Origin: an uncultured Chloroflexia bacterium
Lineage (GTDB): Bacteria; Chloroflexota; Anaerolineae; B4-G1; SLSP01
Length of the DNA stretch: 64,000 nucleotides
Assembly (NCBI GenBank): GCA_963751345.1
Contig: CAVVUS010000037.1
Span: 96,001 to 160,000, forward strand
Reading direction: 5' to 3'
The position numbers and the translations under genes were made by a program. This document shows positions 62,096 through 62,462 of this stretch, one piece after another. Each line of letters starts with the position of its first letter. Position 1 is the stretch's first letter. The notes under the pieces were generated by a model that worked only from the letters and a program-made list of their open reading frames with translations, searched no databases and had not been told where the DNA came from.

Positions 62096-62123
62096 TTGAC
62101 ACCCTCAGGATATCGGGTACAAT
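62096..62123 (+). promoter_or_regulatory. Lysine operon promoter
   Basis: TTGACA, 16 bp, TACAAT. Confidence 0.7.
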
Positions 62124-62144
62124 ATCCCTCATTCAGGAAACTTG

Positions 62145-62195
62145 ATGATGCGACACACGATGTACCTGCGAGGGACGAAGAAGCCGGACCGCTAG
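62145..62195 (+). CDS. Leader peptide 1 (MMRHTMYLRGTKKPDR)
   Basis: AGGA RBS, tandem AAG AAG codons, overlaps attenuator pairings. Confidence 0.7.
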   Translation: MMRHTMYLRGTKKPDR

Positions 62196-62225
62196 GTCCG
62201 GAGATTCGTGTTGAAGCAGGACACC

Positions 62226-62264
62226 ACCGGCCCTAGTGCAAGCGCACAGGGTCGGTTTTCTGTT
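62226..62264 (+). terminator. Attenuator terminator 1
   Basis: ACCGGCCCT-AGTGC-aagc-GCAC-AGGGTCGGT followed by TTTCTGTT. Confidence 0.75.
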
Positions 62265-62283
62265 ACTTAGGGGCAGGACTGTT

Positions 62284-62364
62284 ATGGCTTCACGACACGC
62301 CAGTTGTCTCAATCGCATAGACAAGAAGTGCAAGTGCAACAAACCAGACACCGGGTCTGGATAG
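62284..62364 (+). CDS. Leader peptide 2 ([26 protein letters not shown])
   Basis: GGGGCAGGA RBS, four clustered Lys codons, overlaps attenuator pairings. Confidence 0.72.
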
Positions 62365-62388
62365 CTGCGCTTGGCACAGTATCTTGCC

Positions 62389-62434
62389 AAAACACCAGCT
62401 TCCGGGCCCAGGCCTGGAAACTGGTGTTTTTGTT
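62389..62434 (+). terminator. Attenuator terminator 2
   Basis: AAAACACCAGCTTCCGGGC-ccag-GCCTGGAAACTGGTGTTTT-TGTT. Confidence 0.8.
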
Positions 62435-62462
62435 AGCCATAGAAGAGAGGGACAGGAGAGAG

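Follow-up and report, generated by a model that had tools for sequence, protein, structure and literature searches.

The homocitrate synthase gene (hcs) considered here lies near the end of a 64,000-nucleotide (nt) stretch of DNA from an uncultured Chloroflexia bacterium (contig CAVVUS010000037.1, positions 96,001 to 160,000 of the forward strand; the whole stretch is hereafter the window). Its leader, of ~340 nt, can be explained by two paralogous ribosome-mediated lysine attenuators acting in series downstream of one promoter, a reading that we consider probable (roughly 0.78). Computation established directly which elements the leader contains, how well they are conserved, which pairings compete and which gene is under control. 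An initial annotation, made from the sequence alone, had proposed two complete serial lysine attenuators at this position, and the conserved units, the single promoter, the hcs target and the ribosome-mask folds described below agree with that proposal. The source organism, a Chloroflexota member of the class Anaerolineae, is known only as a metagenome-assembled genome (MAG), and among named genomes it is closest to MAGs that bear the labels Anaerolineae, Thermoflexales or Thermoflexus. The sequencing runs listed for the stretch comprised nine DNA entries, mostly with small shares of it, and no RNA entry, which counts neither for nor against function.

The elements of the leader, including an upstream open reading frame (uORF) in each unit, and the gene that follows are listed here.

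62096-62123, plus strand: sigma-70-type promoter, TTGACA / 16 nt / TACAAT, agreeing with the consensus at 11 of 12 positions
62145-62195, plus strand: leader ORF 1 (uORF1), MMRHTMYLRGTKKPDR and stop, 16 codons, ATG at 62145
62164-62223, plus strand: protector hairpin 1, core CCGGACC/GGUCCGG at 62184-62201
62192-62201 pairing with 62227-62236 (the 5' arm of terminator 1), plus strand: antiterminator 1, from the folds
62226-62264, plus strand: intrinsic terminator 1, stem-loop at 62226-62256 and then the U-rich UUUUCUGUU
62284-62364, plus strand: leader ORF 2 (uORF2), 26 codons, ATG at 62284
62328-62377, plus strand: protector hairpin 2, outer helix CAAGUGCA/UGCGCUUG, core CCAGAC/GUCUGG at 62344-62360
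62353-62367 pairing with 62396-62409 (the 5' arm of terminator 2), plus strand: antiterminator 2, from the folds
62389-62434, plus strand: intrinsic terminator 2, a long stem-loop and then the U-rich UUUUUGUU
62463-63656, plus strand: hcs, encoding the first enzyme of the alpha-aminoadipate lysine pathway (TIGR02146)

The hcs product scored 483.6 bits against TIGR02146, an NCBIfam equivalog model with a cut-off of 413.55, in accord with the earlier naming of the downstream gene as homocitrate synthase, and its ribosome-binding site (GGAGAGAG) lies immediately 5' of the gene. A promoter scan of 61800-63800 yielded one promoter-like site only, at 62096-62123, which is the TTGACA/TACAAT promoter first noticed in the initial annotation; transcription would start near 62130. 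A Shine-Dalgarno (SD)-type AGGAA at 62135-62139 is located 5 nt before the start of uORF1, a frame with two adjacent Lys codons (62178-62183) that ends at a UAG stop codon (62193-62195). The start of uORF2 is preceded by a G-rich site, GGGGCAGGA. This second frame has four Lys codons, at 62323, 62326, 62332 and 62341, and it too ends in UAG (62362-62364).

The minimum-energy fold of 62125-62470 contained both protector hairpins and both terminators, with long hairpins spanning the uORF ends. Its z-score was -7.65, and none of 100 shuffled sequences was equally stable. Three helices made up protector 1 in the folds (CCGGAC/GUCCGG, ACGAA/UUCGU and CCUGC/GCAGG), of which the two outer ones, ACGAA/UUCGU and CCUGC/GCAGG, are found in the window genome only, the consensus structure consisting of the core alone. 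Protector 2 had a hairpin energy of -24.5 kcal/mol, and the hairpins of terminators 1 and 2 had energies of -22.6 and -30.5 kcal/mol, respectively. Antiterminator 1 comprises 9 pairs with one U-C mismatch and antiterminator 2 comprises 14 pairs with one bulged U; the 5' strand of each includes the stop codon of the corresponding uORF. The protector helices, the pairings with the terminator 5' arms and the two terminators were all among the features that the annotation had pointed out, and every element named there was found in its place or within one base of it.

A simple terminator scanner reported the inner stem of terminator 2 only and no terminator 1, and a second scan recovered both. Terminator-like sites on the minus strand (62201-62184 and 62360-62344) were set aside, as they are merely the protector hairpins on the opposite strand. 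An Rfam cmscan of 61900-62600 at E values up to 10 gave no match to a lysine riboswitch, a T-box or an amino-acid leader; the only matches, to CRISPR-DR28 (E = 2) and sR32 (E = 10), were unrelated and at chance level.

From this arrangement we infer translation of both uORFs, ribosome stalling, termination and a response to lysine, which would proceed as follows. Each uORF would be translated while RNA polymerase is transcribing the leader. Where Lys-tRNA is ample, the ribosome would reach the stop codon inside the antiterminator 5' strand, and this strand would then either lie beneath the ribosome or, after release, return to the protector hairpin, such that the terminator would form and transcription would end. 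[quoted passage not shown] Most likely, the operon would be opened only when lysine is short. Given that both terminators must be passed, read-through into hcs would be the product of two lysine-dependent probabilities, and the serial layout suggests that such a two-step process would bring a lower basal level and a sharper or wider response. The steeper or AND-type response put forward in the annotation would likewise be a consequence of this layout.

In the ribosome-mask folds, bases covered by a ribosome were kept unpaired, and the RNA was either full-length or ended before the terminator 3' arm. Without a ribosome, the full-length RNA formed the protector and the terminator in unit 1 and in unit 2. 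With the A site on a Lys codon of unit 1 and the RNA ended before the 3' arm, antiterminator 1 formed 9 or 7 of its 9 pairs (footprint +12); at the same stage, a ribosome with its A site on any of the four Lys codons of unit 2 left antiterminator 2 with 13-14 of 14 pairs. When the A site was placed on the stop codon, the antiterminator had 0 pairs in both units and at both stages, and the full-length RNA gave the complete terminator. Folding with the ribosome at Lys versus stop codons had been put forward in the annotation as a check, and its outcome, antiterminator at Lys and terminator at stop, was the anticipated one. As modeled here, the mask folds behave like a classical attenuator with one added feature, namely that in both units the stop codon falls within the antiterminator 5' strand.

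A blastn search with the leader gave a match in 17 of the 21 other genomes of the genus and no match in the 19 searched genomes of other genera. The blastn set comprised 18 distinct loci, L011 and L013 being omitted as second copies of the places represented by L020 and L019. At all 18 loci, the first uORF ends K-K-P-(D/G)-x-stop. A second Lys uORF was present in 15 of the 18 and absent from L009, L014 and L017; in 14 of these 15, K-x-K is followed by the ending P-(D/G)-x-x-S-G-stop, and the remaining one is a variant. A further 80 loci, 8 of them duplicates, came from a protein-guided search of public records, to give 90 non-redundant hcs upstream regions from Anaerolineae, and covariance models were constructed from alignments of unit 1 (R1, 23 sequences) and unit 2 (R2, 17 sequences). 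With a threshold of 50 bits, R1 matched 27 of the 90 loci; with one of 60 bits, R2 matched 20, and the two models matched adjacent non-overlapping places at 19 of the 90. A strong first unit with a weaker second was found at L034 (36.3 bits) and L035 (32.6 bits), and the first unit of L034 was matched by both models. When the models were exchanged, R2 scored 14-33 bits on unit-1 sites and R1 scored 15-27 bits on unit-2 sites; the two units are paralogues in architecture and, in part, in sequence. Such conservation in related genomes means that the tandem layout is more than chance. The annotation had treated the leader as a single locus, a view that no longer holds given that the leader belongs to a family with single and tandem forms across the class Anaerolineae. 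The tandem lysine leader is a conserved, uncatalogued RNA family that is absent from Rfam.

Outside the conserved elements, the leaders of the 19 loci share no more than 66-84% identity. In unit 1, near-invariance extends over 24 nt, beginning with the two Lys codons and including the hairpin, and also over the terminator 5' arm; the consensus fold there consists of a protector core of 7 base pairs (bp), intact in 21 of 23 sequences with two pairs each broken in one, and a terminator stem of 9 bp, in which three pairs carry compensatory changes. The unit-2 consensus has a two-part protector, with 10 pairs kept through G-C, G-U and A-U variation, and a 12-bp terminator stem with seven compensatory pairs, for example from A-U to G-C in five sequences. 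Pairing of the antiterminators was scored over all sequence-by-pair cells, with the partner slid by one to three columns as a control. Paired cells amounted to 98.1% for antiterminator 1 (23 sequences) and 87.8% for antiterminator 2 (17 sequences), and the slid partners reached no more than 54% in either case. The covariation that the annotation had proposed looking for was present in both terminators and nearly absent from the antiterminators, which hardly vary.

The uORF codons were compared in tables whose rows were chosen by peptide motifs, positions -12 and -7 of uORF2 lying outside the selecting motif. Lys occupied both positions of uORF1 in 24 of 24 rows, as did K-K-P-(D/G)-x-stop; in uORF2, positions -12 and -10 each had it in 16 of 17 rows, and position -7 had it in 13 of 17. 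The intervening and preceding codons vary widely, and the Lys codons are kept although they lie just outside the helices. An alignment of hcs leaders had been suggested at the outset as a way of checking the Lys codons, and they are indeed kept in both units, in rows that are partly motif-selected. The stop codon falls in the antiterminator strand in all 24 unit-1 rows and all 17 unit-2 rows, and an in-frame start was present in all relatives for both uORFs. Counted over the 28 near-clade loci, the uORF1 motif was found in 25 and the uORF2 motif in 18. The promoter is similarly conserved: all 21 related loci with at least 130 nt of upstream sequence have TTGACA / 16-17 nt / TAnnnT at a fixed distance before the Lys codons. 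Between the units, a promoter-like site was seen at 1 of 15 loci, as a weak 9-of-12 match in an AT-rich genome, so that an internal promoter bypassing unit 1, which the annotation had named as a finding that would speak against the tandem, has no support.

The distribution of the units was investigated by exact-pattern scans of 401 genomes sampled evenly across the class, with the backward pattern as control. The unit-1 core was found in 3 of the 401 (the window's own and two of another family; backward control, 0) and the unit-2 core in 19 genomes of 16 genera (backward control, 2 hits), which makes the unit-2 type the widespread form. Two genomes of another family, G158 (contigs C79 and C122) and G269 (contigs C121 and C319), had the unit-2 core on two contigs each, and each may possess a second operon under a similar attenuator. 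In the window's own genome R1 and R2 found the hcs leader only, a weak negative, as scoring covered 150 of the more than 1000 candidates from the first look.

A quick maximum-likelihood tree (IQ-TREE) was obtained from 87 homocitrate synthase (HCS) proteins after three rows with broken or cut genes had been dropped. The near clade comprised 25 rows, with a value of 96 in the SH-like approximate likelihood ratio test (SH-aLRT); 18 of these rows are tandem and 7 have a single sensing unit, the latter sitting in at least three places. Unit 1 only was found in L009, L030, L031 and L036, and a unit of the unit-2 type only in L033. In L014 and L017, two loci of the same genus, unit 1 is followed by a strong terminator resembling terminator 2 (approximately -113 to -79 and -170 to -134 from hcs, respectively), which has neither uORF2 nor a protector and looks like an orphan left after loss of the second sensor. 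Unit 2 of L032 (approximately -211 to -94 from hcs) has a hairpin loop of 4 nt, not 5, and this places the usual UAG out of frame, making uORF2 ~30 nt longer, through the antiterminator strand. At L002 and L006, the hcs match was in two tblastn pieces, which suggests a frameshift or a MAG assembly error.

At most of the more distant hcs loci there is a single Lys uORF with a terminator, and peptide tails are found such as K-x-S-K-x-K-K-P-D-P-W-S-G. Seven distant loci inspected by eye (L068, L069, L076, L084, L085, L086 and L095) are also tandem, each with two units of Lys uORF, hairpin and terminator that have other sequences, including the complementary words UCUGGUAAG and CUUACCAGA, and these fall in the neighbouring 25-row clade of the HCS tree. 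The tandem may be ancestral with losses, or it may have had more than one origin. One of these loci, L076, is labelled as a Blastocatellia MAG; its hcs gene and tandem leader nest on a long branch among Chloroflexota, which points to a mis-binned contig or a transfer. An automated census of terminators and Lys uORFs gave totals (22 two-unit and 4 three-unit loci) that were set aside as unreliable. False extra units had been called at L014, L020, L030, L069, L076 and L084, and unit 2 had been missed at L007, L026, L035 and L068; therefore, model matches and inspection were relied upon instead.

A further clade of 17 rows has a single Lys attenuator 230-390 nt upstream of hcs, and in all 17 a small ORF ending E-E-D-W-G-E is located directly upstream of the gene. 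This ORF, of ~55-65 codons and with two CxxC pairs, fills the gap between attenuator and hcs in 8 of 9 inspected loci; loci with this arrangement include L044, L054, L070, L077, L091, L092, L050 and L071. We take the E-E-D-W-G-E ending to be a candidate signature of the LysW carrier protein, in which case the attenuator would front lysW-hcs.

A number of observations weigh against two functional attenuators in series. Unit 1 has just two Lys codons, and with a footprint of +15 at the second of them antiterminator 1 forms just 4 of its 9 pairs. With a ribosome on a Lys codon, the full-length RNA at equilibrium folds into the terminator, with 0 of 9 antiterminator pairs in unit 1 and 0 of 14 in unit 2. 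Given that the terminator is the equilibrium fold despite the stalled ribosome, read-through must be kinetic, and trapping of the antiterminator is assumed. In ribosome-free unit 2, ended before the 3' arm, the minimum-energy fold is the antiterminator and not the protector, which makes it doubtful what unit 2 does by default when it is untranslated. The antiterminator columns show minimal variation, with double changes at 1 pair and 2 pairs only, and the unit-1 antiterminator covariation score was reached by 37 of 500 shuffles. As these columns hardly vary, their support is conservation and not covariation; that each strand serves two helices would explain the invariance. The selection of rows by motif means that the invariance of K-K-P and of the unit-1 stop, and likewise that of K(-10), the P-(D/G)-x-x-S-G tail and the stop in unit 2, arises partly by construction. 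An SD-like site precedes the in-frame start in 14 of 24 uORF1 and 11 of 17 uORF2 sequences, and terminator 2 of L007 is without a good U-tract. Finally, the 7 of 25 near-clade genomes with one unit imply that the second unit is dispensable.

This last point bears on an alternative in which one unit alone senses lysine and the other, either a duplicate in decay or simply a leaky terminator, contributes nothing to regulation. Decay of this kind is consistent with the single-unit leaders of close relatives, whether of unit 1 or of the unit-2 type, with the orphan second terminators in L014 and L017, with the poor U-tract in L007 and with the out-of-frame uORF2 stop in L032. However, both units keep their Lys codons, stop, protector, antiterminator and terminator over 19 loci despite the divergence of the remaining leader, the compensatory changes in terminator 2 imply selection on its stem, and independent-looking tandems occur in other lineages; we judge a single working sensor to be unlikely. 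It is less likely still that the units sense different signals, with lysine read by unit 1 and arginine, cysteine or a mixture by unit 2. A two-signal leader has a precedent in mgtCBR (PMC3641672); moreover, Cys codons occur in uORF2 of the window, and 12 of 17 relatives carry Arg at its position -9. At this position, though, the window and 2 relatives have Cys and further relatives have His or Ser, and the position lies within the outer protector helix, where the bases are constrained by pairing. Lys is the sole residue kept at three to four positions, and the more distant single units are rich in K-x-K-x-K-K. Sensing of Arg or Cys by unit 2 was accordingly rejected as the principal explanation, the Arg/Cys position not being conserved.

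The lowest probability, a very small one, is given to binding of a protein or a small ligand by the conserved hairpins, in the manner of a riboswitch or of TRAP or PyrR, with the small ORFs incidental. The 24-nt core of unit 1, near-invariant even at wobble positions, could mark a binding site, but the same invariance is explained by a double pairing duty in which each strand takes part in two alternative helices. There is also no match to an Rfam family, the frames are uninterrupted between an in-frame start and a structurally fixed stop while their N-terminal codons diverge, and the unpaired triplets that are kept are Lys codons ahead of a lysine-pathway gene. Two serial lysine attenuators thus remain the preferred explanation.

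A stronger proposal is that two units in series for the same signal are a selected design and not an accident of duplication, giving multiplied read-through and two thresholds in an ultrasensitive, low-leak switch that is old or recurrent in Anaerolineae. We hold this tentatively, at slightly less than an even chance. Under such a design, two thresholds would follow from the difference between the units in Lys codon number (2 versus 4) and in spacing. The view that the switch is old or recurrent is based on retention of the tandem in the window's clade and on tandems of unrelated sequence in Anaerolineaceae-like lineages. Were the design a selected one, the natural single-unit relatives would be ready-made controls.

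Two neighbouring genes complete the local context.

63766-64000, plus strand: 5' part of a homoaconitase / isopropylmalate-isomerase large-subunit gene, truncated where the window ends (TIGR02086, TIGR01343)
60949-61941, minus strand: dusB-like tRNA-dihydrouridine synthase gene, the divergent upstream neighbour (TIGR00737, above cut-off)

The 78-residue homoaconitase-family fragment matches TIGR02086 and TIGR01343 at scores under the full-length cut-offs because only a fragment lies in the window. This gene is the next member of the regulated operon, and with hcs followed by a homoaconitase-family gene the operon makes the amino acid that would be sensed. Given that the dusB-like gene upstream is divergent, terminator 1 cannot serve an upstream gene.

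Leader-peptide attenuation is a textbook mechanism that, to our knowledge, is known almost only as single units and has been studied mainly in Proteobacteria. The hcs leader would provide a conserved natural case in which a whole attenuator has been duplicated in series for the same amino acid, and would show that ribosome-based sensors, too, have evolved the logic behind tandem riboswitches and double T-boxes, namely sharper or tighter control. For Anaerolineae, a large class that is for the most part uncultured, the leader would also be the first point of entry to the regulation of lysine biosynthesis. The relatives form a natural series of one unit, two units, and one unit with an orphan terminator, and a comparison along it would measure the contribution of the second unit.

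The closest counterpart in gene and amino acid is the alpha-aminoadipate lysine cluster of Thermus thermophilus, which reportedly is controlled by a Lys leader-peptide attenuator (Tsubouchi et al., J Biol Chem 2005). The Thermus hcs leader is reported to share with the present one the regulated gene, the pathway and a short ORF with adjacent Lys codons that controls an intrinsic terminator. It is reportedly a single unit, from Deinococcota, whereas two serial units are found here in Chloroflexota.

The amino-acid attenuators of Proteobacteria include the trp, his, leu, thr, phe and ilv leaders. These share with each hcs unit a four-segment logic, with the codons in segment 1, a 1:2 protector, a 2:3 antiterminator and a 3:4 terminator, and also the placement of the stop codon such that a finishing ribosome blocks segment 2. 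A classical leader has one peptide and one terminator, whereas in the hcs leader the entire set is present twice, as a head-to-tail duplication. Section 11 of PMC3641672 gives a summary of the trp case.

In the literature searched, most subscription journals lying outside it, neither a natural leader with leader-peptide attenuators in tandem for one amino acid nor a lysine attenuator from Chloroflexi came to light. The suggestion in the initial annotation that the architecture is undescribed therefore fits that literature, in which the nearest cases are mgtCBR, ermB and synthetic tandems. The ermB case is translational. Tandem pT181 attenuators (bioRxiv 10.1101/003335 and 10.1101/018358), reportedly engineered and controlled by antisense RNA, share the serial arrangement and differ in being neither natural nor ribosome-mediated. 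One candidate source, PMC3556520, uses the term leader peptide for mitochondrial targeting only and has no bearing on attenuators.

Closest in layout is the Salmonella mgtCBR leader, which contains two leader ORFs that sense ATP and proline with additive effect and has no intrinsic terminators (Lee and Groisman 2012, PMC3641672). The likeness is that each of two short ORFs in a single leader directs the choice between stem-loops on which transcription of the coding region depends. In the hcs leader, on the other hand, both ORFs carry codons of the same amino acid, the terminators are canonical and the effect should be multiplicative and not additive. Both leader ORFs here are Lys-codon ORFs, so that the leader is not of the two-signal mgtCBR type.

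The analogues among RNA-based sensors are double T-boxes and tandem riboswitches. For double T-boxes, a recent duplication and a sharper response have been suggested (PMC9413887), and tandem metE riboswitches are mentioned in section 11 of PMC3641672. Such leaders share with that of hcs two complete sensor-plus-terminator modules in series within one leader. In riboswitches and T-boxes the RNA itself senses a ligand or an uncharged tRNA directly, whereas in the hcs leader the sensor would be the translating ribosome.

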